A stretch of 12,448 bases of DNA from Cyanobacteriota bacterium (lineage in GTDB: Bacteria; Cyanobacteriota; Cyanobacteriia; Cyanobacteriales; Geitlerinemataceae): positions 28,278 through 40,725 of the forward strand of contig JAXHUC010000042.1 of NCBI GenBank assembly GCA_034189805.1, read 5' to 3'. The first letter of the stretch is position 1. Every line of letters starts with the position of its first letter. This document shows positions 641 through 11,068 of this stretch, piece by piece. The position numbers and the translations under genes are program-made. Under the pieces are notes generated by a model. The model was not told the DNA's origin, did not search any database, and was given only the letters and a program-made list of their open reading frames with translations.

Positions 641-1624
641 TCAATTGTCCGGGGGTAGGAAAGCTGCAATATCGGCAAAGTTTCCGGCATAAGTGGGCAT
701 GGGGCGATCGTACCCTTTCAGGTGAACTTCACGGGCTTCGAGGGCACTCAGATCGAGCTTTGTCGCTTCTAGATATTGGTAGGTCGTTTGACCGAGGGCC
801 ACTTCTTTACCCAACTTCTTGGTACAGGACTCCAGACGGAACGCAGCGTTGACGGTATCGCCCAATGCGGTGTAATCCGGACGATCGCCGCTACCGGTGT
901 TGCCGACCATGGCGTATCCGGTATTCACCCCAGCCCCGATGCGCAACGGGAAGGGGAGGGGATAGCGATCGCTCAATTTCTGCGTCATCTTCTGGAGGTT
1001 GCTCAGGGCTTGACAAATCTGCACCCCTTCTTTAGCCGTGACGCGATCTTGAGGGTGAAACCAAACGGCCATAATCGCATCGCCGATATACTTATCTACC
1101 CAACTGCCGGAGATGCGGATAATTTCTCCAGACTGGCGGAACCAAGTGCCGATTAATTCTGAGAGGATGGCTTCGTCGAGTTGGCGGGTGAGGACGGTGA
1201 AATCGCGGATATCGATGACCATCACCGAAATCAAACGACGGATGGACAACAAGGCGGTTGCCGTTGCCGAGTCGTCGCCCTCGAACTCTTCGCTATCTTC
1301 TGGCAGGGGGCGAAGGGGACAGAAAAAATCGAGCTGAGTTTGACCGAGGGTGAGGCGATCGCCATTTTTGAGGGTGACGGGAATGCTGACCCGCCGTCCG
1401 TTAACGAAAGTGCCGTTGCGACTGCCGAGATCGATTAGGTAATAGTCGCCACCATCCGTGCATTGGAGCATCGAATGATTGCGCGAAATCCACCGATCTC
1501 GGACGACAAAGTTGTTATCGTCATTACGGCCGATCGTCCAACATTTGTAGCCTTCTAAGGACAGATAGCGGTCGCCCGAGTCAGTGCGCAGAACTAGGTG
1601 GGGAGAGGATTCGATCGTTATCAC
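641..1624 (-). CDS. FHA domain-containing class III adenylate/guanylate cyclase (probably adenylate)
   Basis: 327-aa ORF with a GTG start at 1624. The N-terminal FHA motif is WTIGRNDDNNFVVRDRWISRNHSML...YYLIDLGSRNGTFVNGRRV. The C-terminal class III cyclase motifs are VMVIDIRDFT (metal Asp), DKYIGDAIMAVW (Lys plus metal Asp) and GVNTG..GNTGS....YTALGDTVNAAFRLES. Confidence 0.9.
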   Translation of the reverse strand: MITIESSPHLVLRTDSGDRYLSLEGYKCWTIGRNDDNNFVVRDRWISRNHSMLQCTDGGDYYLIDLGSRNGTFVNGRRVSIPVTLKNGDRLTLGQTQLDFFCPLRPLPEDSEEFEGDDSATATALLSIRRLISVMVIDIRDFTVLTRQLDEAILSELIGTWFRQSGEIIRISGSWVDKYIGDAIMAVWFHPQDRVTAKEGVQICQALSNLQKMTQKLSDRYPLPFPLRIGAGVNTGYAMVGNTGSGDRPDYTALGDTVNAAFRLESCTKKLGKEVALGQTTYQYLEATKLDLSALEAREVHLKGYDRPMPTYAGNFADIAAFLPPDN

Positions 1625-3018: not shown

Positions 3019-3993
3019 ATGATTGTATCGTTCCGTAAACTGTTGCCGTTTTGCGCCCTGAGTAGCGTGGGAGCGATCGGCGCTTTAACCCTTGACGCGA
3101 CGGCTACCCCAGAACCGATTGCCACTGCCGATACCGTTTCCGAGGCGATCGCCTGGACTCCTAACGTGTTCCAAGCCATTATTCTAGGGATGGTGCAGGG
3201 ACTGACGGAATTTTTACCCATCAGCAGTACCGCTCATTTAAAAGTGGTTCCCGAAGTGTTGCAATGGGGCGATCCGGGGGTCGCGTTTACCGCCGTCATC
3301 CAACTGGGGAGTATCGCCGCCGTGTTGTCCTACTTCTGGGAGGATTTGGTGCAAGTGACCACGGGAAGCATCAAAGCGATTTCGACCTCGGACTATCAAT
3401 CCCAAGATTTCCGCATTGCCCTGGGGATTGCCTTGGGAACCTTTCCCATCCTGATAATTGGTTTGCTGGTTAAATTTGTTTTTGCCGACTTTTACGAAAC
3501 CCACGTCCGCACCCTGTTCGTGATTGCGATCGTGTCGATCGTTATGGGTATTTTGCTCGGAGTCGCCGAACGGCTTTGTTCGCACAAGCGAGATTTTGAC
3601 AGCCTCACCATGTCCGACGGGATTTTGATGGGTTGCGCCCAAGCCCTCGCCCTAATTCCGGGGGTGTCTCGTTCCGGTTCGACGATTACGGCAGGTTTAT
3701 TTATGGGGTTAGATCGGGCGACGGCCGCTCGATTTTCCTTCCTGCTGGGGATTCCGGCGATTACCCTGGCGGGGTTGGTAGAGATGAAAAGCGCCCTGGG
3801 GGATGGTGGCGAGGTGTCTTGGTTGCCGTTGCTGGCGGGGTTGATTTCGGCGGCAGTTTTCTCTTATTTAGCGATCGCCTGGTTGATTAAGTTCCTGCAA
3901 ACGCAAAGCACTTGGGTATTCGTTTGGTATCGAGTGGCGTTTGGGATTGTCATTTTAGGGGCGATCGCAGCGGGAGTGTTGCAGAACGGATAG
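3019..3993 (+). CDS. uppP: Undecaprenyl-diphosphate phosphatase (UppP/BacA)
   Basis: 324-aa ORF with the UppP signatures GLTEFLPISSTAHL and PGVSRSGSTITAGL, and multiple TM helices. The ATG at 3019 gives a signal-like N-terminal extension of about 49 aa. An in-frame GTG at 3166 would give a canonical-length protein starting (M)FQAIILGMVQGLTEF. Confidence 0.92.
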   Translation: MIVSFRKLLPFCALSSVGAIGALTLDATATPEPIATADTVSEAIAWTPNVFQAIILGMVQGLTEFLPISSTAHLKVVPEVLQWGDPGVAFTAVIQLGSIAAVLSYFWEDLVQVTTGSIKAISTSDYQSQDFRIALGIALGTFPILIIGLLVKFVFADFYETHVRTLFVIAIVSIVMGILLGVAERLCSHKRDFDSLTMSDGILMGCAQALALIPGVSRSGSTITAGLFMGLDRATAARFSFLLGIPAITLAGLVEMKSALGDGGEVSWLPLLAGLISAAVFSYLAIAWLIKFLQTQSTWVFVWYRVAFGIVILGAIAAGVLQNG

Positions 3994-4046: not shown

Positions 4047-4289
4047 TTATGCCCGATCGTCGCCATCGTCAGTCTCGAACAAATCCGTGGCTTTGCTACC
4101 CAACAAGCCAAATACCGCACCGATTCCCATTTGCCACGTCGCCGTGCAGTTCTCGAAGACGCGGATTTGCTGGGGGGAGAGTTCGGCTTTCGATGCCAGC
4201 CAGAGTGAGGTTCCCCCGGAAAGCAGGGTAATGCTAACGACGGTGAAGAAAACTTGTTGAAATGCGGGAGGAAGGTTTACGTTATTCAT
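4047..4289 (-). CDS. Small hypothetical membrane protein (two predicted TM helices)
   Basis: 80-aa ORF. A canonical AAGGAG Shine-Dalgarno lies about 8 nt upstream of the ATG (minus strand: AAGGAGCCACCATCATG). Two hydrophobic segments are present (VFFTVVSITLLSGGTSLWLA, WQMGIGAVFGLLG). No recognisable family. Confidence 0.6.
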   Translation of the reverse strand: MNNVNLPPAFQQVFFTVVSITLLSGGTSLWLASKAELSPQQIRVFENCTATWQMGIGAVFGLLGSKATDLFETDDGDDRA

Positions 4290-4496: not shown

Positions 4497-5711
4497 ATGC
4501 GATCGCTTGTTGCCTCCCCCAATGGAATTGAAACCGCTAAAATTGCCCTGACGGGTGAACAGTGGACGCAGGAAAAACTTGCCGAACACGTAGAAGTCGA
4601 TCGGCAGACGGTTAACAAGTTTTTCAATCAGAAGCCTGTCAAAAGTCAGATTTTCGTCGAGATTTGTAATACTCTCGGTTTGAATTGGCAAGAGATTGCA
4701 GTTGCCACAACATCAAAACGCCAACCCACTCAACCGGCACCATCGGGTAATACCAACCCCTTCACCGACGGCACACCTGCACCGCCCGATCGCTTCTACG
4801 GCAGGCGAGACGCAATTTTAGAAGTCAAAAGCCGGATTGGAGGAATTAGCCCCCAGTGCATCAATATTGTGGGGCATCGGCGGGTGGGGAAAACCTCGCT
4901 ACTGCGCTACATTCGCGATCGCACGATCGAATTTTGTCCGGAGTCGCAGCAGCCACTAATTGTTTCCCTAGATTTGCAAGATAATAAGTTTCATACCCCG
5001 GAAGGGATTTTGGAGGGATTGCGGCGCGGCATTGGCAAGCTAACGGGAACTGAACCTTGGCAACGGCAGGAAGACGACGACGGGTTTGCGGTGGAGGATG
5101 GATTGCAGGCGATCGCAGATGATGGATATCGGGCGATCGTCATGTTAGATGAATTTGAGGCGATCGCGAGGCGGTTGGTGGAATTCGAGGATTGGGGAGA
5201 AGATTGGCGATCGAAAGCCTCTGCGGGGTTGCTAACGATGGTTATTGCCAGCAAGCGTCCTCTAGCGGAACTCTATCAAACCCTACATCTGACATCGCCC
5301 TTCGATAATATCTTTAGTACCACGATTTTGGGGGCATTAGCGACGGAGGATTGGCAGCGTTTGGTACGCGATGGGTTTGGCGGTGAGGTGGGAACCTCGG
5401 AACTCGCTTGGATTGACGAGTTAGCCGGAGGGATTCCGTTTTACGTGCAGATGGCGGCATCGATGTTGTGGCAATACGGGGATTTGGCGAAGGCAGAGGC
5501 GGAATTTGTGTTTCAATCCCGATCGCATTTCCAGAAGCTTTGGCAGGAGTTGAGAGAACCGGAACGGATTGCGATAAAAAGGGTGATTCGCGGCGAAACG
5601 GTGGAGTCGAAGGTGATGCTAAATCTCCTCCAACGTTACGGAATCTTGCGAGAAGACAGTCGTTTATTTAGCCGCGTTTTTGCCGAGTTTGTGGCGGAAG
5701 AATGTCGGTAA
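4497..5711 (+). CDS. HTH domain + P-loop NTPase (STAND-like / ATPase_2 (Arch_ATPase)-type AAA ATPase) with C-terminal winged-helix-like region
   Basis: 404-aa ORF. The N-terminal XRE-like HTH is WTQEKLAEHVEVDRQTVNKFFNQKPVKSQIFVEICNTLGLNWQEI, a module common at N-termini of cyanobacterial STAND proteins. Walker A is GHRRVGKT (4872-4895) preceded by FYGRR, and Walker B is IVMLDE (5136-5153). The downstream GGIPFYVQ and C-terminal LLQRYGILRE motifs align with the C-terminal half of the 7413-10097 protein. Confidence 0.85.
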   Translation: MRSLVASPNGIETAKIALTGEQWTQEKLAEHVEVDRQTVNKFFNQKPVKSQIFVEICNTLGLNWQEIAVATTSKRQPTQPAPSGNTNPFTDGTPAPPDRFYGRRDAILEVKSRIGGISPQCINIVGHRRVGKTSLLRYIRDRTIEFCPESQQPLIVSLDLQDNKFHTPEGILEGLRRGIGKLTGTEPWQRQEDDDGFAVEDGLQAIADDGYRAIVMLDEFEAIARRLVEFEDWGEDWRSKASAGLLTMVIASKRPLAELYQTLHLTSPFDNIFSTTILGALATEDWQRLVRDGFGGEVGTSELAWIDELAGGIPFYVQMAASMLWQYGDLAKAEAEFVFQSRSHFQKLWQELREPERIAIKRVIRGETVESKVMLNLLQRYGILREDSRLFSRVFAEFVAEECR

Positions 5712-5789
5712 ATTTCGGGAAGATTCGATATAGTAATTTTAAACGGTTTGTTGTCAGTATTCAGCGATCGGGCAAGCGCGAAAGAATCT

Positions 5790-5855
5790 GTAAGGGCGGG
5801 TTTGGATAGATTCGATCGAACTTGCTGAGGATTTTCACACAAAACCCGCCCCTAC
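5790..5855. repeat. Imperfect 14-bp inverted repeat (GTAAGGGCGGGTTT ... AAACCCGCCCCTAC); MITE-like or palindromic-element candidate
   Basis: The arms at 5790-5803 and 5842-5855 match 13/14 as reverse complements, with a 38-nt loop. The GGGGCGGGTTT/AAACCCGCCCC arm type resembles short dispersed hairpin repeats I recall from filamentous cyanobacterial genomes. There is no U tract, so it is not a classical terminator. Confidence 0.4.
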
Positions 5856-5935
5856 CCATTGTGACCCTAGCAGGATCTAAAATCTCGCTCTGAATCTTTA
5901 CAGTTCGTTTTCCCTAGGTTATTTGTTAAAAAATT

Positions 5936-6655
5936 ATGGTTCTCAGCAATCCCCCCAATGCGGTAATATTTCCCCCAAGCGACCTCGAAAGTGACGAACC
6001 TCCCTTGGAAACCGATCGCCATCTGCAACAAATTATCCTCCTTTTAACCTGTCTGCAATGGTGGTGGCAGGAACGTCCCGATGCACCGGAATCTCGCCGC
6101 AATAACTTCTATGCTGCCGGAAATATGACGGTATATTACAGCAGCCGCCAGCTACGGAACGAAAAGTTTCGCGGGCCGGATTTTTTCGTAGTATTAGATA
6201 CGGAATATAAGGAACGCAAAAGTTGGGTGGTGTGGGAAGAAGATGGCAAATATCCTAATGTCATTATTGAAATGCTGTCGGATTCGACGGCGGAAATGGA
6301 TCGGGGGAAGAAAAAAGATATCTATCAAGACAGCTTTCGCACGCCGGAATACTTTTGGTTCGATCCTTATACTTTAGAGTTTAAAGGCTTTCGATTTTTT
6401 GGGAAATATGAAGAGATCGCACCAACGGAACGGGGCTGGTTGTGGAGTCAGGAATTAGATTTATATCTGGGAATTGTGGATGAGAAATTACGGTTTCTGA
6501 CACCGCAAGGGGAAGTGGTTCCCACGCCATTGGAGGCGGCAAAGCGGGAACTTCAGCGAACGGAGTTAGAACGGCAGCGTGCAGAGGCAGCGGAGGCAGA
6601 GTTAGAACGATTGCGTCAGCAGATTCGCGAACGGGGAATCGATTTAGATTCGTGA
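5936..6655 (+). CDS. Uma2 family (DUF820) PD-(D/E)xK endonuclease with C-terminal coiled-coil tail, copy 1
   Basis: 239-aa ORF. The Uma2 pattern is GPDFFVVLD...YPNVIIEMLSDSTAEMDRGKKKDIYQDSFRTPEYFWFDP. The C-terminal tail is charged and helical (ELERQRAEAAEAELERLRQQIRERGIDLD). It is paralogous to 10307-11068. Confidence 0.9.
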   Translation: MVLSNPPNAVIFPPSDLESDEPPLETDRHLQQIILLLTCLQWWWQERPDAPESRRNNFYAAGNMTVYYSSRQLRNEKFRGPDFFVVLDTEYKERKSWVVWEEDGKYPNVIIEMLSDSTAEMDRGKKKDIYQDSFRTPEYFWFDPYTLEFKGFRFFGKYEEIAPTERGWLWSQELDLYLGIVDEKLRFLTPQGEVVPTPLEAAKRELQRTELERQRAEAAEAELERLRQQIRERGIDLDS

Positions 6656-6706
6656 TGTTTTTTTGATTTTGGGTGCTGTAGGAGCAAAGCATTTTAGCGA
6701 AAAATC

Positions 6707-7396
6707 ATGTTTGTTACCCAGATATCAAAATCGAAATGGTTGCTCAAATTCTTAACCCCTACAGAGTCGAATAATATGTCCTACAGTCAGTTCGATTTAC
6801 AGACGGCTTTAACTCAATTTAAACTCAGCTTAATTGAAGAATCTTTTCTCTCGAAAGTTGTTCCTGTCAAACCGAGTGAATGGCTGGCAACTTCTCTCGA
6901 TATTGGATTAAACTGGGCGATCGATAACAATACGGAAAAGGCGAGGGCGGAGGCGATAATCACACCGATTTTAATCGAGATTAAGACGAAACTACTGAAG
7001 GGGAATGTTTCTCTATTTTCTGGGAAAGATTTTTCCGTGGATGCTGCGTTGGGATTGAACGGACTTTGCGACTATATTATCAGCTTGTCGCCAAATCAAT
7101 TGTTGATTACTGCCCCGGTTGCGGTTGTTTTTGAAGCGAAACGAGAGGATATTAATAGTGGATTCGGACAATGTATTGCGGCGATGGTTGCCGCGCAAAA
7201 GTTTAACCAACAGTATCAACAAGAAATTGAGACAATTTACGGGGCGGTAACAACAGGCGATCGCTGGCGATTTTTGAAATTGGAAAATCAGATTGTAACC
7301 ATTGATATTGCAGAAGTTCGCATTCCTCCGGTGAATCATCTGTTGGGGATTTTAGTGGCGATTTCGAGTCCTGAGATGACTTGGCAAAATAAGTAG
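6707..7396 (+). CDS. Hypothetical PD-(D/E)xK nuclease-fold protein (HsdR_N-like restriction endonuclease-like domain)
   Basis: 229-aa ORF. An alternative start at ATG 6776 (MSYSQF...) is plausible. The motif order is EKARAEAIITPILIEI ... CDYIIS (Asp) ... VAVVFEAKRED (E-x-K) ... GQCIAAMVAAQKF (Gln), as in HsdR N-terminal-type PD-(D/E)xK domains. The stop at 7396 lies only 16 nt before the next gene start. Confidence 0.7.
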   Translation: MFVTQISKSKWLLKFLTPTESNNMSYSQFDLQTALTQFKLSLIEESFLSKVVPVKPSEWLATSLDIGLNWAIDNNTEKARAEAIITPILIEIKTKLLKGNVSLFSGKDFSVDAALGLNGLCDYIISLSPNQLLITAPVAVVFEAKREDINSGFGQCIAAMVAAQKFNQQYQQEIETIYGAVTTGDRWRFLKLENQIVTIDIAEVRIPPVNHLLGILVAISSPEMTWQNK

Positions 7397-7412
7397 AAGT
7401 TAGATATAGAAA

Positions 7413-10097
7413 ATGCGTCGTTTTCTTCGCGAAACTTGGGAAATGTGGTACTGGGCGATGTTTTGTCCGTCTAAGCTTCAGCAGCGGATGAATGAATGGT
7501 CGCCGAAACAAAAAAAAGGCGGACACAGACCTGATACAGCTTTTAACGATATTCTTCTATCTAATTTTAACTTTCGTTTTTTTTGTCAATATTTTTGTAT
7601 TTTAATTGTTCTGAGTCTACCTCTGCTCTTCATTATCTGGAGTAACAGCCGGGGGATAGATGGGTGGCTTTTGCCGATGGTTCTGATGACTGCCTATGGG
7701 GCGGGCATTTGGTTTCTACCCATCAGTTTTGCCGTGCCGGGATTGTTTACATTGGTGTATTGGCAACAGCCAGAAGCCTGGATTGAAGGATTTAGGGATG
7801 GCTTCAGCGATGGCTTGGAGGACTTACCGCCATTGACTTCGATCGGTCAAGGATTTGCGGTGTTGGCATTGCTGTGGCTGCTGACGCTGATTATCGGTCG
7901 ATGGCTGTTGGGGAAAAATCATCTGTCTGTGGGGCAAAACTTTATCATCATTGGCGGAATTTTCAGTACTTTTGCAGGGAGTTGGTGGGGTAGCCACAAT
8001 TGGATATTTGCTTTATTGGTGGGTGGACTCACTGGCTTCTTTCTAGTTGCGAATCGCGATGAAATTACGGCTGAAAATTTGCAACAGTCTCGTGGCAATC
8101 TTGTTGAAGATGTGGCTTATGGCGTGGCGGTCGGCGTGGCGGTCGGCGTGGCGGTCGGCGTGGCGTTCGGCGTGGCAACACTTCCCCTGGCTATACTATT
8201 ACTCGCCAGTTGGTTTGCCGCGTGGAGTTTATCCCCCGTTCGCCGGTTTGGACTGATTACATCGGGAGTCTTTGCCGCATTGGGGTTTAATCACTTAGGT
8301 TGGCAATGTCTGTGGGCGATTCCCGTGACTCTGGCTGGTTACTATCGCCTATTTCCGGGTTATCTTATCTCCCTGCCAGAGATGCTGATTCCCTCGATTC
8401 CGTTTCTGGGCCGCTTCAATATCGATCCCATACCGCGACTGACTCGACGGCTGCCTCAACTTCCCCCGCACACCAGCGAACTTCTCTGGTTTCCCCTTCC
8501 CAACCACGATCGCATTCTCGCTGCCGCCTTCCAAACCAATCCCTCAGAAGCCCTGAAAACCTTCGAGAAAATGCAAGCCATCGAACTTCCCGGCTTCCAA
8601 ATTACCCTAAAAAATGCCCTGCCCCAAATTATCGCCGATCGCCTTTTTGCCACCCAAACCACCACCGAACTCATCGCCACCGCCAGCCCCAAACATCCCC
8701 TCCTGCCTCTGCTGATTCCCAGCTTCTACAGTTCAAATACCGAACCCCCTCCCGCCAACATCCGCCCGGAAATTTCCATCCTCGTTCCCCGACTCCAATC
8801 CATCGCCGAAGATGTAGAAGCGGCCCTAGAACCGAAAAGTGCGGCCTTGCGGGAACGGGGACTCGATCGCATTCTCAACAATCTTGCCCTCCTGCAAACT
8901 CAACTCCCCGGACTGGGACTCAAACCCAAAGCCAGGGAACGGTGGCAACCCGTCCTCCAACGCTGGCAGCGCGTTATCCAACTGGAACTGGAAACCCAGC
9001 AGCAACAATCCCAAGGGGAACTCCTCAACCCCTTCCTCTACGGCAACCCCCTAAAACGCGATCGCCCGGACATTTTCAGAGGCCGCCAAACCTTCGCCGA
9101 CGAAATCGTCCGCCAAATTCTCGATCGCAACCGTCCCACCCTCGTCCTCCACGGCCCTCGTCGCTGCGGCAAAACCTCTTTTCTCTACAACCTGCCGCGC
9201 CTCCTCCCCAGCGATTTACTGCCGATTTTTGCCGATATGCAAAGTTCGGCCGCCACCCAGGACGACGGATCGTTTTGCTACGCCTTAGTTCGCGCCATTG
9301 TCAAAGACAGTCGCAGCCAGGGGGTGAAATTCCCGGAACTCCCCCCGCGTCAAGAATTTCGCGACAGTCCCTACGCGGCATTGGAAGACTGGTTCGATCG
9401 CGCTTTACCCAAATTGGGCGATCGTCGCCTCCTCCTCAACCTGGATGAATTTGAAAAAATCGGCGCGGCCATACACGCCGGAAAGCTGAGTTTGCAAATT
9501 TTCGACCAACTGCGCCACTTGATCCAACATTACGATGCCTTGGGCTTCCTCTTCTGCGGCGTGCAAACCCTCGACGAACTCGGCCCCAATTGGAGTAGCT
9601 ACTTCATCAGCGTCGTTCCCATGGAAATGCTGTACCTCGAACCCGAGGAAGCCAACCAGTTGCTGGTGAATCCAGACCCCGAGTTCGAGTTACGCTACGA
9701 CACTGGCATCGTCGATACCGTCGTCGCACTCACCCGCAGCCATCCCTACCTGGTGCAACTCATCGGTTCGGCAATGGTGATGGAAGCCAACCAACACCAA
9801 ACTACCCTGATAACTCCAGATTTACTCGAAGCGGCGATCGATCGCGCCCTCACCCTCGGCGAACCTTACTTTACCAACGTCTGGACGGAGTTTACCGGAA
9901 CCACACCGGAAATGGTCGTTGCAGGACAGGCATTATTAAAGGCGATCGCTGAAAACCGCGACATCCCCACTGCCAACCCTGCCTTGCAGCGATTGCTACG
10001 CTACCACATCCTCGAAACTCGGGAAAATGGCAGCTACAATTTTGAAATCCCCTTACTCAAACGTTGGGTGCGAGAACGAGCGATTTTCAACTCATAA
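7413..10097 (+). CDS. Polytopic membrane module (about 8-10 hydrophobic segments, incl. glycine zipper) fused to a STAND-like P-loop ATPase and C-terminal winged-helix-like region
   Basis: 894-aa ORF. The first ~330 aa are rich in TM-like segments (FCILIVLSLPLLFIIW, GFAVLALLWLLTLIIG, WIFALLVGGLTGFFLV, AYGVAVGVAVGVAVGVAFGVATLPLAILLLASWF...). A Pro/Leu-rich linker with a helical stretch follows. The ATPase has NPFLYGNP..FRGR, Walker A GPRRCGKTS (9153-9179), Walker B LLLNLDE (9429-9449), SHPYLVQ and a C-terminal LLRYHILE motif, all collinear with the 4497-5711 protein. Confidence 0.85.
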   Translation: MRRFLRETWEMWYWAMFCPSKLQQRMNEWSPKQKKGGHRPDTAFNDILLSNFNFRFFCQYFCILIVLSLPLLFIIWSNSRGIDGWLLPMVLMTAYGAGIWFLPISFAVPGLFTLVYWQQPEAWIEGFRDGFSDGLEDLPPLTSIGQGFAVLALLWLLTLIIGRWLLGKNHLSVGQNFIIIGGIFSTFAGSWWGSHNWIFALLVGGLTGFFLVANRDEITAENLQQSRGNLVEDVAYGVAVGVAVGVAVGVAFGVATLPLAILLLASWFAAWSLSPVRRFGLITSGVFAALGFNHLGWQCLWAIPVTLAGYYRLFPGYLISLPEMLIPSIPFLGRFNIDPIPRLTRRLPQLPPHTSELLWFPLPNHDRILAAAFQTNPSEALKTFEKMQAIELPGFQITLKNALPQIIADRLFATQTTTELIATASPKHPLLPLLIPSFYSSNTEPPPANIRPEISILVPRLQSIAEDVEAALEPKSAALRERGLDRILNNLALLQTQLPGLGLKPKARERWQPVLQRWQRVIQLELETQQQQSQGELLNPFLYGNPLKRDRPDIFRGRQTFADEIVRQILDRNRPTLVLHGPRRCGKTSFLYNLPRLLPSDLLPIFADMQSSAATQDDGSFCYALVRAIVKDSRSQGVKFPELPPRQEFRDSPYAALEDWFDRALPKLGDRRLLLNLDEFEKIGAAIHAGKLSLQIFDQLRHLIQHYDALGFLFCGVQTLDELGPNWSSYFISVVPMEMLYLEPEEANQLLVNPDPEFELRYDTGIVDTVVALTRSHPYLVQLIGSAMVMEANQHQTTLITPDLLEAAIDRALTLGEPYFTNVWTEFTGTTPEMVVAGQALLKAIAENRDIPTANPALQRLLRYHILETRENGSYNFEIPLLKRWVRERAIFNS
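8121..8177 (+). repeat. In-frame 12-bp tandem repeat (GGCGTGGCGGTC, about 4.75 units) encoding (GVAV)n
   Basis: Three perfect units lie at 8121-8132, 8133-8144 and 8145-8156. A one-mismatch unit follows at 8157-8168 (ggcgtggcgttc) and a partial unit at 8169-8177. The translation is GVAVGVAVGVAVGVAFGVA, with Gly at every fourth residue. Confidence 0.92.
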
Positions 10098-10123
10098 ATC
10101 AATTCGGTTGGATGTATTAGATG

Positions 10124-10179
10124 GCGATAAGATTTACAGGAAACTACGGAGTCGAAATCTATCGTAACGCATCTTTTTT
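10124..10179 (+). terminator. Candidate terminator after the TM-ATPase gene
   Basis: A hairpin pairs 10124-10135 (gcgataagattt) with 10155-10165 (aaatctatcgt). It has 11 bp with one bulge (A10129), one G-U pair and a 19-nt loop. A T6 run follows at 10174-10179, 8 nt after the stem. The stem is AU-rich and the T run is distant, so this is tentative. Confidence 0.3.
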
Positions 10180-10306
10180 ATCGAGTATAATTCATACAGC
10201 GTGGAGTATAAAAAACACCGCTTTTTACTTCACATAAAAATATAAAATTATTCCACTTCATACCCAACAGTACCTCTATTTACTCAACCGAGTCTCAAAT
10301 TAAATT

Positions 10307-11068
10307 ATGGTTCTCAGTCAGTCCCCCAATGCGGTAATATTTCCTCCTAGCGACCTCGAAAGTAACGAACCTCCCTTGGAAAGCGATCGCCATCTTCAAC
10401 AAATTATTCTCCTGTTAACTTGCCTGCAATGGTGGTGGCGGGAACGTCCCGATGCACCGGAATCTCGCCGGAATAACTTCTATGCAGCGGGAAATATGAC
10501 GGTGTATTACAGCAGCCGCCAACTGCGCAACGAACAGTTTCGCGGGCCCGACTTTTTCGTCGTCCTGGATACGGAATACAAAGAACGCAAAAGTTGGGTG
10601 GTGTGGGATGAAGATGGCAAATATCCCAATGTGATTGTGGAAATGCTGTCAGATTCGACCGCAGATATCGATCGAACTCAAAAAAAGCAAATCTATCAAA
10701 ATACCTTTCGCACGCCGGAATACTTTTGGTTCGATCCCTATACTTTAGAATTTAAAGGGTTTCGATTTGTTGGCGCATACGAAGAGATAGCCACAACACA
10801 AGAAGGCTGGTTATGGAGTCAAGAATTAGATTTGTATTTGGGAATAGTGGATGATAAACTGCGGTTTCTGACACCGGAAGGGGAGTTAGTTCCCACGCCA
10901 TCGGAAGCGGCACAGCAGCAACAACAGCAAACAGAAGTCGAACGAGAACGCGCAGAAGCCGAACGAGAACGTGCGGAAGCCGAACGAGAACGCGCCGAAG
11001 CAGCAGAGGCAGAATTAGAACGGTTGCGGCAGCAGATTCAAGAACGGGGCATTAACTTAGATATGTGA
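10307..11068 (+). CDS. Uma2 family (DUF820) PD-(D/E)xK endonuclease with expanded C-terminal coiled-coil tail, copy 2
   Basis: 253-aa ORF collinear with 5936-6655, with the same Uma2 motifs (GPDFFVVLD, VIVEMLSDSTADIDRTQKKQIYQNTFRTPEYFWFDP). The tail carries a QQQQQQ run and a threefold ERERAEA repeat. Confidence 0.9.
   Translation: MVLSQSPNAVIFPPSDLESNEPPLESDRHLQQIILLLTCLQWWWRERPDAPESRRNNFYAAGNMTVYYSSRQLRNEQFRGPDFFVVLDTEYKERKSWVVWDEDGKYPNVIVEMLSDSTADIDRTQKKQIYQNTFRTPEYFWFDPYTLEFKGFRFVGAYEEIATTQEGWLWSQELDLYLGIVDDKLRFLTPEGELVPTPSEAAQQQQQQTEVERERAEAERERAEAERERAEAAEAELERLRQQIQERGINLDM
10940..11002 (+). repeat. In-frame 21-bp tandem repeat x3 (GAACGAGAACGYGCNGAAGCM) encoding ERERAEA x3
   Basis: The units lie at 10940-10960, 10961-10981 and 10982-11002 and differ only at a few mostly synonymous positions. 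The paralog has a single related unit (gaacggcagcgtgcagaggca, 6569-6589). Confidence 0.9.

Follow-up and report, generated by a model that had tools for sequence, protein, structure and literature searches.

We analyzed a stretch of 12,448 nucleotides from a Cyanobacteriota bacterium of the Geitlerinemataceae (assembly GCA_034189805.1, contig JAXHUC010000042.1, positions 28,278 to 40,725 of the forward strand; hereafter the window) and focused on five genes in it, of which two, A and D, encode ATPases and three, U1, C, and U2, belong to nuclease families. The open reading frame (ORF) list and Pfam place all five on the same strand between uppP/BacA (positions 3019 to 3993; Pfam, 6.7e-82) and a small ORF on the left and, on the right, the part of clpB that encodes the ClpB N terminus, which continues past the end of the window; this is the layout described in an earlier reading of the DNA made without database searches (the sequence-only reading). 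The five genes and a repeat within D are as follows (aa, amino acids).

4497 to 5711, + strand: gene A, 404 aa; helix-turn-helix (HTH) plus STAND-like ATPase; the variable-N-terminus partner of the pair
5936 to 6655, + strand: gene U1, 239 aa; Uma2 family (Pfam Uma2, 1.2e-19); passenger
6707 to 7396 as ORF, likely start at 6776, + strand: gene C, 229 aa (206 aa from Met24); PD-(D/E)xK protein; passenger
7413 to 10097, + strand: gene D, 894 aa; membrane module plus ATPase core; the constant partner of the pair
8121 to 8176, + strand: 12-nt tandem repeat in D, 4.7 copies (Tandem Repeats Finder); encodes a (VAVG)n glycine-zipper-like segment
10307 to 11068, + strand: gene U2, 253 aa; Uma2 paralogue (Pfam Uma2, 5.8e-21); passenger

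The paralogous ATPases A and D

The sequence-only reading had described A and D as divergent STAND-like ATPases with different N termini, a DNA-binding HTH in A and a polytopic membrane domain in D, and both descriptions hold. A consists of an XRE/Cro-type HTH (about residues 1 to 68), a low-complexity linker, and a core of ATPase, helical lid, and winged helix (about residues 87 to 400). Its HTH match is weak (HTH_3, 8.8e-4, under the Pfam cutoff), and in an AlphaFold2 model built from the family alignment residues 1 to 70 form a helical bundle with a predicted local distance difference test (pLDDT) score of 87 to 96, the mean for the whole model being 76. The P-loop region of A matches Pfam AAA_22, and the protein also scores 27.3 bits against nSTAND2 (cutoff, 24), a match that covers only the C-terminal half of the nSTAND2 model. 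The Walker A and B motifs of A read GHRRVGKTS and VMLDEFE, and residues G126, K132, S134, D218, and E219 are invariant in an alignment of 32 A homologues. A Foldseek comparison of the A model with the PDB recovered the archaeal PF01637 ATPases PAB2304 and SSO1545 (2qen and 2fna) and Cdc6/ORC (1fnn), together with NRC2, NRC4, Sr35, Apaf-1, CED-4, and Avs4, at E values of 4e-7 to 1e-3; the TM-scores of both the A and D models were low (0.2 to 0.35), reflecting domain orientation and low-confidence regions. Searching PDB sequences with the profiles of A, D, and C gave no significant match. A is 100% identical to SWY16_11555, a protein of a Cyanobacteriota metagenome-assembled genome (MAG).

D begins with a conserved N-terminal helix, followed by a polytopic membrane region (about residues 57 to 330), a conserved middle part with a coiled coil (about 330 to 530), and an ATPase, lid, and winged-helix core (about 540 to 890). 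Hydropathy analysis places about 6 to 8 hydrophobic helices within residues 57 to 264, with the VAVG repeat among them. Downstream of the membrane part D matches Pfam AAA_22; its Walker A motif is GPRRCGKTS, its Walker B motif is LNLDEFE, and the key Walker residues are invariant in an alignment of 17 full-length homologues. The AlphaFold2 model of D, likewise built from the family alignment, has a mean pLDDT of 66, with 70 to 90 in the ATPase part, and its Foldseek matches include RuvB, RFC, ORC/Cdc6, TnsC, and Avs3. D has more than 60 full-length homologues, and its architecture does not vary. The N-terminal 520 residues of D matched 127 clusters among 1.84 billion representative proteins, and the full-length members were all about 900 to 1,100 aa long, so the membrane module is restricted to the D family. 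No exact-sequence record was found for the window D or for the homologue P0241, and PADLOC returned only an irrelevant match to D. The sole plasmid match to D lies at positions 199686 to 200627 of NZ_MH220285.1 (Acinetobacter ursingii), with 24.5% identity to residues 539 to 824; the stretch is annotated as N-6 DNA methylase, and the match is to a remote relative of the ATPase within a restriction-modification-like gene.

The glycine-zipper-like repeat, written (VGVA)n for the family, is a length-polymorphic spot of the D family. The segment spans 44 to 125 aa in D homologues, and in 13 of the 17 aligned sequences glycine, alanine, and valine account for over 50% of its residues, with a maximum of 84%. 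It is the fastest-evolving part of D, with a nonsynonymous rate (dN) of 0.36 versus 0.05 in the ATPase part, and at the nucleotide level the repeat at 8121 to 8176 has no similarity to the close relative, in which the flanks of the repeat are 78 to 84% identical.

The sequence-only reading had pointed out a collinear set of motifs shared by A and D, and this reflects real homology rather than chance: the two proteins align by BLASTP with 30% identity over 152 aa (E value, 1e-5), and their family profiles align by hhalign with 98.2% probability (E value, 4e-14) over 318 columns, joining residues 63 to 402 of A to residues 517 to 889 of D. A and D are therefore paralogous across the whole ATPase, lid, and winged-helix core. 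Both families keep the motifs GxRRxGK[TS]S and LDEFE invariant; with Walker A and B intact in both, A and D both look catalytically competent. D itself matches no STAND-family hidden Markov model (HMM) in Pfam, including nSTAND2, and some A and D homologues weakly match nSTAND1 (PF20703) or ATPase_2. The label "STAND-like" is supported by predicted fold, motifs, and these weak family matches, and the two proteins appear as minimal STAND versions made up of NTPase, lid, and winged helix only.

Conservation of the A-D pair and the changeable N terminus of A

We scanned 185,579 species-representative genomes for D homologues, which identified about 100 species and returned 80 loci with 8-kb flanks; all ORFs of 83 loci (these 80 and three fetched earlier) were then searched with the window proteins. 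D loci are present in cyanobacteria (Nostoc, Crocosphaera, Microcoleus, Pseudanabaena, and others), Chloroflexi (Oscillochloris, Chloroploca, Viridilinea, and Caldilineaceae), myxobacteria (Sorangium and Polyangium), and one Desulfobacterales genome. In 64 of the 83 loci the gene immediately preceding D, in the same orientation, is of the A type; it matches A over about residues 85 to 400, mostly with 44 to 63% identity (37% in the Desulfobacterales locus). The two genes overlap by 4 bp in about 20 loci, and in another 20 or so they have a gap of about 37 bp. Where A is missing, D mostly lies no more than about 1.3 kb from a contig end, and D is fragmented in three loci (L064, L066, and L082). 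The linkage of A and D is thus strongly conserved over four phyla. Neighborhood conservation, which had been proposed as a check on the whole cluster, holds for these two genes and fails for C and Uma2 (see below); only the two ATPases make a conserved unit, and the pair is found mostly in filamentous bacteria.

The N terminus of A changes among homologues. Pfam identifies Trypsin_2/Trypsin, CHAT, Peptidase_C14, TIR, Cro/C1-type HTH (HTH_26, HTH_31, and HTH_3), PF19955 and PF19962, and ParA-like domains in this position; PF19955 and PF19962 we take to be effector-associated domains (EAD). Of the 58 full-length A homologues from genomes, 33 have one type of N terminus in common, taken as trypsin, 5 have another N terminus of about 315 aa, at least 6 are of the HTH type, and a few have no N-terminal module; the HTH type is found in the window and in many metagenomic homologues. 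Identity of the A core to that of the window is 52 to 64% regardless of N-terminal type, with the exception of the near-identical P0242 (90%), and this evenness fits repeated domain swapping on a constant A core. All-against-all clustering of neighboring proteins revealed only one recurrent partner that is not explained by lineage synteny, a protein of about 103 aa that corresponds to Pfam Trypco1 and occurs in 37 of the 80 loci; its gene sits upstream of trypsin-fused A homologues, which are followed by D. In five loci of the HTH type (L016, L025, L038, L048, and L063) A and D overlap or abut with nothing between them.

A relative (L090 to L094) in which A is 88% identical to that of the window has the order small ORF, A, Uma2, D, and sulfotransferase. 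The sequence-only reading had raised the possibility that the cluster is a variable island. In blastn comparisons a block shared with the relatives runs from about 4064 (the start in L091 to L094) to 10097, and different genes lie outside it, which places the block in different contexts in related genomes. A search for target-site duplications at both ends of the block turned up only a HIP1-containing 12-mer. Both genes are full length. Compared with the relative, their ratios of nonsynonymous to synonymous rates (dN/dS) are 0.17 (A) and 0.28 (D), at a synonymous rate (dS) of about 0.4 to 0.6, which indicates that purifying selection has continued after the Uma2 insertion common to both lineages.

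Genes of the toxin-antitoxin or defense type are frequent near A-D loci. In a Chamaesiphon MAG (L003/L038) the flanks of the pair hold a 663-aa TerB+Macro protein, a DDE_3 transposase, and a DUF3854 protein, which suggests a mobile or defense-island context in that genome.

Proposed function of the A-D pair and comparison with known systems

We consider it probable that the functional unit at this locus is the A-D pair, a two-component STAND-type (NLR-like) module for conflict or signaling, and that U1, C, and U2 are lodged there without being needed for it. D would be anchored in the cytoplasmic membrane by its polytopic, glycine-zipper-rich module and would detect a membrane-proximal cue; that sensing lies with this module is a guess on our part. 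The ATPase cores, paralogous in the two proteins, would then oligomerize in an ATP-dependent manner and gather the N-terminal domains of A, which would be activated by induced proximity: in most relatives a trypsin protease, acting on the Pepco pore toxin whose gene (Trypco1) lies immediately upstream, and in others CHAT/caspase, TIR, or EAD adaptor domains. In the variant found in the window, clustering of the XRE-type HTH would result in multivalent or cooperative DNA binding, and hence in a transcriptional response rather than direct killing. We infer the physical interaction of A and D, as well as the sensing subunit, the cue, and a role in defense; the conserved adjacency of the genes, the homology of the cores, the intact ATPase motifs, and the exchange of domains on A are observed.

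The pair is put together in the manner of the NTP-dependent conflict systems that multicellular bacteria carry (PMC7159879 and PMC8195603). The sequence-only reading had recognized such a logic in the locus, and the exchange of effector domains on a constant A core and the conserved A-D linkage sustain it; its overall interpretation therefore survives for the pair and fails for the membership of the nucleases. In nearly all descriptions, immune receptors of the STAND and NLR type are single polypeptides whose sensor is a soluble repeat domain, and the A-D pair would split this machine into two ATPases, both apparently active, with one half built into the membrane. If this is correct, the pair would show a way in which bacteria link a signal at the membrane to oligomerization of the NLR kind, and its homologues would provide natural output-swapped variants for tests of induced proximity.

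Several observations weigh against this interpretation. The model of the D membrane module is of low confidence, with pLDDT mostly below 50 to 60. No C-terminal repeat sensor (TPR, WD40, or LRR) was found in A or D, both of which end at the winged helix. Defense profiles contribute little, as PADLOC gives only weak partial matches of A to PDC-S27 and PDC-S01 (E values of 5e-4 to 2e-2), and neither PADLOC nor NCBIfam holds a named system for the pair; this last result agrees with the earlier remark that the combination was not a recognizable named system. Searches of phage and plasmid collections found no real homologue of D, and in Nostoc the A-D locus has a conserved chromosomal context, which is less typical of mobile defense islands. 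Among HTH-type loci we found no conserved third gene, and likewise no target gene of the HTH. Finally, A and D lie 1.7 kb apart in the window, so the translational coupling seen elsewhere has been lost here.

A close published arrangement is the nSTAND2 two-gene operon, whose products are predicted to assemble into a hetero-oligomeric ring in which one partner bears variable effector modules (Kaur, Iyer, Burroughs, and Aravind 2021 eLife, PMC8195603, Fig. 6C). In that pair one NTPase is catalytically eroded and bears C-terminal TPRs together with a HEPN or GT4 effector, and the distribution is mainly proteobacterial (PMC8195603). As in the nSTAND2 system, A and D are encoded by adjacent genes, each with a STAND-type NTPase and a winged HTH of the MNS/Cdc6-like kind, and A scores just above the nSTAND2 cutoff. 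In contrast to it, A and D are both Walker-intact, the variable module is N terminal, one partner is a polytopic membrane protein where the published system has no membrane module, and the distribution is mainly cyanobacterial; Pfam found no TPR, HEPN, or GT4 domain in A, D, or their homologues. We therefore rejected membership in the published nSTAND2 system on the basis of architecture and Walker status, and regard the resemblance as a thematic match only.

A second comparison is with Pepco (Trypco1/Trypco2), a small beta-barrel pore toxin that was shown experimentally to be activated through cleavage by a neighboring protease (Evans et al. 2025 preprint, PMC12642450). "Transmembrane STAND ATPases" are listed there among the sensors coupled to Pepco-protease pairs, and this passing phrase is the only trace of the A-D pair in the searchable literature; the preprint characterizes Pepco with an Avs4 protease, not with this pair, and, as far as its text shows, does not analyze the two-ATPase arrangement. 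The 37 related loci that combine Trypco1, a trypsin-fused A, and D resemble these modules, whereas the window has neither Trypco1 nor a protease and carries an HTH in the protease's place.

The likeness to Avs proteins, NLRs, and Apaf-1 lies in the order of N-terminal effector, central ATPase, lid, and winged helix, in the repertoire of proteases, TIR domains, and caspases, and in the model matches to Avs3, Avs4, NRC, Sr35, Apaf-1, and CED-4. Unlike these proteins, A and D have no TPR, WD40, or LRR sensor and no match to a PADLOC Avs HMM, and the function would be divided over two paralogous polypeptides, one of them embedded in the membrane. A search of the supplements of two Aravind-laboratory papers for such architectures found no entry for the A-D pair, although other catalogues may hold one. 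We conclude that the pair is probably an uncharacterized variant within STAND-type conflict systems that lacks defining features of each named family tested.

Regulators of the MalT/AfsR type raise a different question, since they too fuse a STAND ATPase to a DNA-binding HTH, and ATP-driven multimerization would be expected to control DNA binding in both. The A HTH is XRE/Cro type and N terminal, however, where theirs is a C-terminal LuxR-type domain or an N-terminal SARP domain, and A has no ligand-binding repeats, has an obligatory membrane paralogue, and has sister proteins that carry death effectors. It is nevertheless conceivable, if unlikely, that A and D have no immune role and that A is a MalT-like STAND transcription factor under a membrane-bound D that reports the status of the envelope or membrane. 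The XRE-type HTH in the window and in many metagenomic homologues would fit such a function, as would the stable chromosomal context over many Nostoc genomes, the purifying selection on both genes, the absence of the pair from phages and plasmids, and the absence of a significant defense-HMM match. What argues against it is that in most relatives the same core bears trypsin/Pepco, CHAT/caspase, TIR, or effector-associated domains, which are death or immune effectors, that the pair is spread patchily (about 100 species among the representative genomes, in four phyla), that its flanks differ among close relatives, and that toxin-antitoxin and defense-type neighbors are frequent.

A bolder form of the conflict-module reading, which we hold to be speculative and, like the regulatory one, unlikely, makes D an NLR-like membrane sensor whose (VGVA)n segment is the recognition or gating surface, forming an obligate heteromer with A, and regards the nuclease and toxin-antitoxin genes in the A-D gap as captured effectors. 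The cue might then be, for example, phage proteins that insert into the membrane or membrane depolarization, and the HTH variant would turn membrane danger into transcription; the A-D pair would be a bacterial counterpart of the paired sensor and helper NLRs of plants.

Nuclease genes, inserts between A and D, and other features of the window

Both U1 and U2 are clear members of Uma2 (PF05685), with 70.9 and 75.2 bits, respectively, against a cutoff of 27, and are 81% identical to each other. The sequence-only reading had noted that the order "ATPase then Uma2" occurs twice. The similar spacings are real (224 bp from A to U1 and 209 bp from D to U2), but the U1-U2 similarity is confined to coding sequence, from 5 nt before the ATG to the stop codon, which indicates that the repeated order is not a duplicated unit; with U2 also missing in relatives, we rejected a duplication of this kind. 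The dS between U1 and U2 is 0.68, higher than the 0.42 between U1 and the Uma2 gene of the relative, and the low dN/dS of U1 (0.07) points to strong purifying selection. U2 contains a 21-nt tandem repeat (3.3 copies, 10932 to 11001) that encodes ERERAEA and lengthens the C-terminal coiled coil compared with U1. An Uma2 gene has also been reported in another cyanobacterial conflict operon, in Microcystis ("EAD8+iSTAND2 -> MoxR -> Uma2 -> vWA"; PMC8195603 supplement), in parallel to U1.

C matches no Pfam or NCBIfam family, including when Pfam was run on the C family, and its description in the sequence-only reading as a PD-(D/E)xK protein is confirmed by a match to the PADLOC PD_DExK model (3.5e-48), which was derived from CRISPR-associated PD-DExK genes, and by an E..D..ExK..Q pattern of residues invariant in 16 sequences of the family (E54/K55, D99, E120-A-K122, and Q132). 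It probably starts at Met24 (position 6776), since an identical protein of 206 aa is on record (P0121). The family has 1,217 homologues of about 200 aa, almost all of them cyanobacterial. The two closest (83 to 84% identity) stand beside ffh and a TetR-family gene in one case and after a glycosyltransferase cluster in the other. C thus resembles CRISPR-associated PD-DExK accessory genes in its PADLOC match but has no CRISPR context, as no cas genes are present in the window or around these closest homologues.

The linkage data separate these genes from the ATPases. BLASTP and phmmer searches of all ORFs found no C homologue in any of the 83 D loci. For Uma2 they found one BLASTP match and two weak, distant phmmer matches in the 1.19 Mb of flanking sequence. 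No match falls in the A-D gap, and at the species level Uma2 is absent from that gap in all 80 loci. The relative L090 has a Uma2 gene at the place of U1, which makes U1 a passenger common to the close relative and not to the wider family. In one relative (L090), nucleotide alignment shows that window positions 6771 to 7321, the body of C, are missing with both edges of C kept, and we conclude that this lineage lost C by deletion. The relatives also lack U2 and have a sulfotransferase gene after D instead. U1, U2, and C are clear members of the Uma2 and stand-alone PD-(D/E)xK families but are unlinked to the ATPase pair outside this lineage; they are passengers from families massively expanded in cyanobacteria and not required components. 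The earlier caveat that the Uma2 genes might be coincidental was well placed and extends to C, and the proposal of one five-gene cluster with interleaved nucleases is not supported.

The gap between A and D has received other genes elsewhere:

Trypsin-type loci: HepT/MNT toxin-antitoxin pairs
L060, 6385 to 7842 (HTH type): XisH/XisI (Pfam), MNT, and a HEPN-like ORF
L043 (HTH type): a DUF4351 Rpn-like gene
L069, 5958 to 7858 (Pseudanabaena FACHB-1998): a gene for a 393-aa ATPase-like protein (ABC/OLD-like by eye) and a 240-aa gene; A-D fragmented
L004, 7124 to 7818, and L002, L006, L009, L018, L040, and L064 (Crocosphaera, Symploca, and Potamolinea): a gene of about 107 aa

The two-gene insert of L069 is possibly another defense cassette. 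In L004, L006, and L009 the next gene after that of about 107 aa encodes about 122 aa, including a DTG motif; Pfam matches neither of the two, and the pair occurs in the gap of trypsin-type loci. The DTG protein is possibly retropepsin-like, and the two genes may be an uncharacterized toxin-antitoxin-like or accessory pair. Because trypsin-type loci also have unrelated inserts in the same gap, it is simply a permissive site that takes up small selfish cassettes. The inserts in HTH-type loci (Uma2, C, XisH/XisI, and DUF4351) are all of the nuclease or toxin-antitoxin type, with too few cases to judge. In L048, an XisH/XisI pair apparently lies just upstream of A (6386 to 7128; sequence resemblance only).

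An integrated five-gene defense system, in which U1, C, and U2 are effectors under ATPase control and, for example, the HTH-ATPase A licenses the embedded nucleases, is in our view quite unlikely. It would account for the shared strand and tight packing of the genes, with only 16 bp between C and D, for the match of C to a CRISPR-derived model, for the HTH-type A that has no enzymatic effector of its own, for the low dN/dS of U1, and for the finding of nuclease or toxin-antitoxin inserts in three independent HTH-type lineages (Uma2 and C in the window, L060, and L043). It is contradicted by the absence of C from all 83 loci and of Uma2 between A and D in other species, by the five HTH-type pairs without any insert, by the relative that has lost most of C, is without U2, and keeps A, Uma2, and D intact, by closest C homologues that stand alone in unrelated neighborhoods, and by the unrelated gap inserts of trypsin-type loci. 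For annotation, this means that same-strand PD-(D/E)xK genes (Uma2, the C family, XisH, and Rpn-like genes) in cyanobacterial operons should not be taken for components of a system unless there is evidence of linkage.

Very unlikely, finally, is that the locus is a decaying mosaic of selfish genes with A and D as a split remnant that no longer cooperates: the 1.7 kb and two foreign genes between A and D, where a 4-bp overlap or about 37 bp is the norm, the loss of a gap gene (C) in a relative, and the fragmented D of three loci would be in keeping with decay, but A and D in the window are full length, keep every family-invariant residue, and have the low dN/dS values given above despite a dS of about 0.4 to 0.6.

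The remaining features of the window lie around the pair and in its spacers. The small ORF to the left is as follows.

4047 to 4289, - strand: small ORF, 80 aa; two hydrophobic stretches; within the left part of the block that the relatives have in common with the window (block from about 4064)

An 80-aa gene is called at the same place in the relative L093, and BLASTP of the protein against the 83 D loci gave no match; it was not found beside A-D in the wider family. In the intergenic region between A and U1, GGGCGGGTTT ... AAACCCGCCCC form an inverted repeat whose arms are about 40 nt apart (positions 5793 to 5853), perhaps a hairpin or a MITE-like element. Neither Rfam nor tRNA scans gave a match in the window, and a scan for promoters and terminators gave counts not above those of shuffled sequence. 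The spacer between U1 and C holds an element of about 67 bp (6676 to 6741), with copies of about 81% identity in L093 (1229 to 1295) and L094 (469 to 535) that sit about 100 to 160 bp to the left of the start of similarity to the window; it may be a small dispersed repeat. Toward the left end of the window, positions 641 to 1624 (- strand) encode a 327-aa fusion of an FHA domain with the catalytic domain of an adenylate/guanylate cyclase (Pfam, 7.7e-23 and 1.1e-12), and this gene adjoins psbU (98 to 517, - strand) and a gene for a DUF3120 membrane protein (1888 to 2622, - strand).

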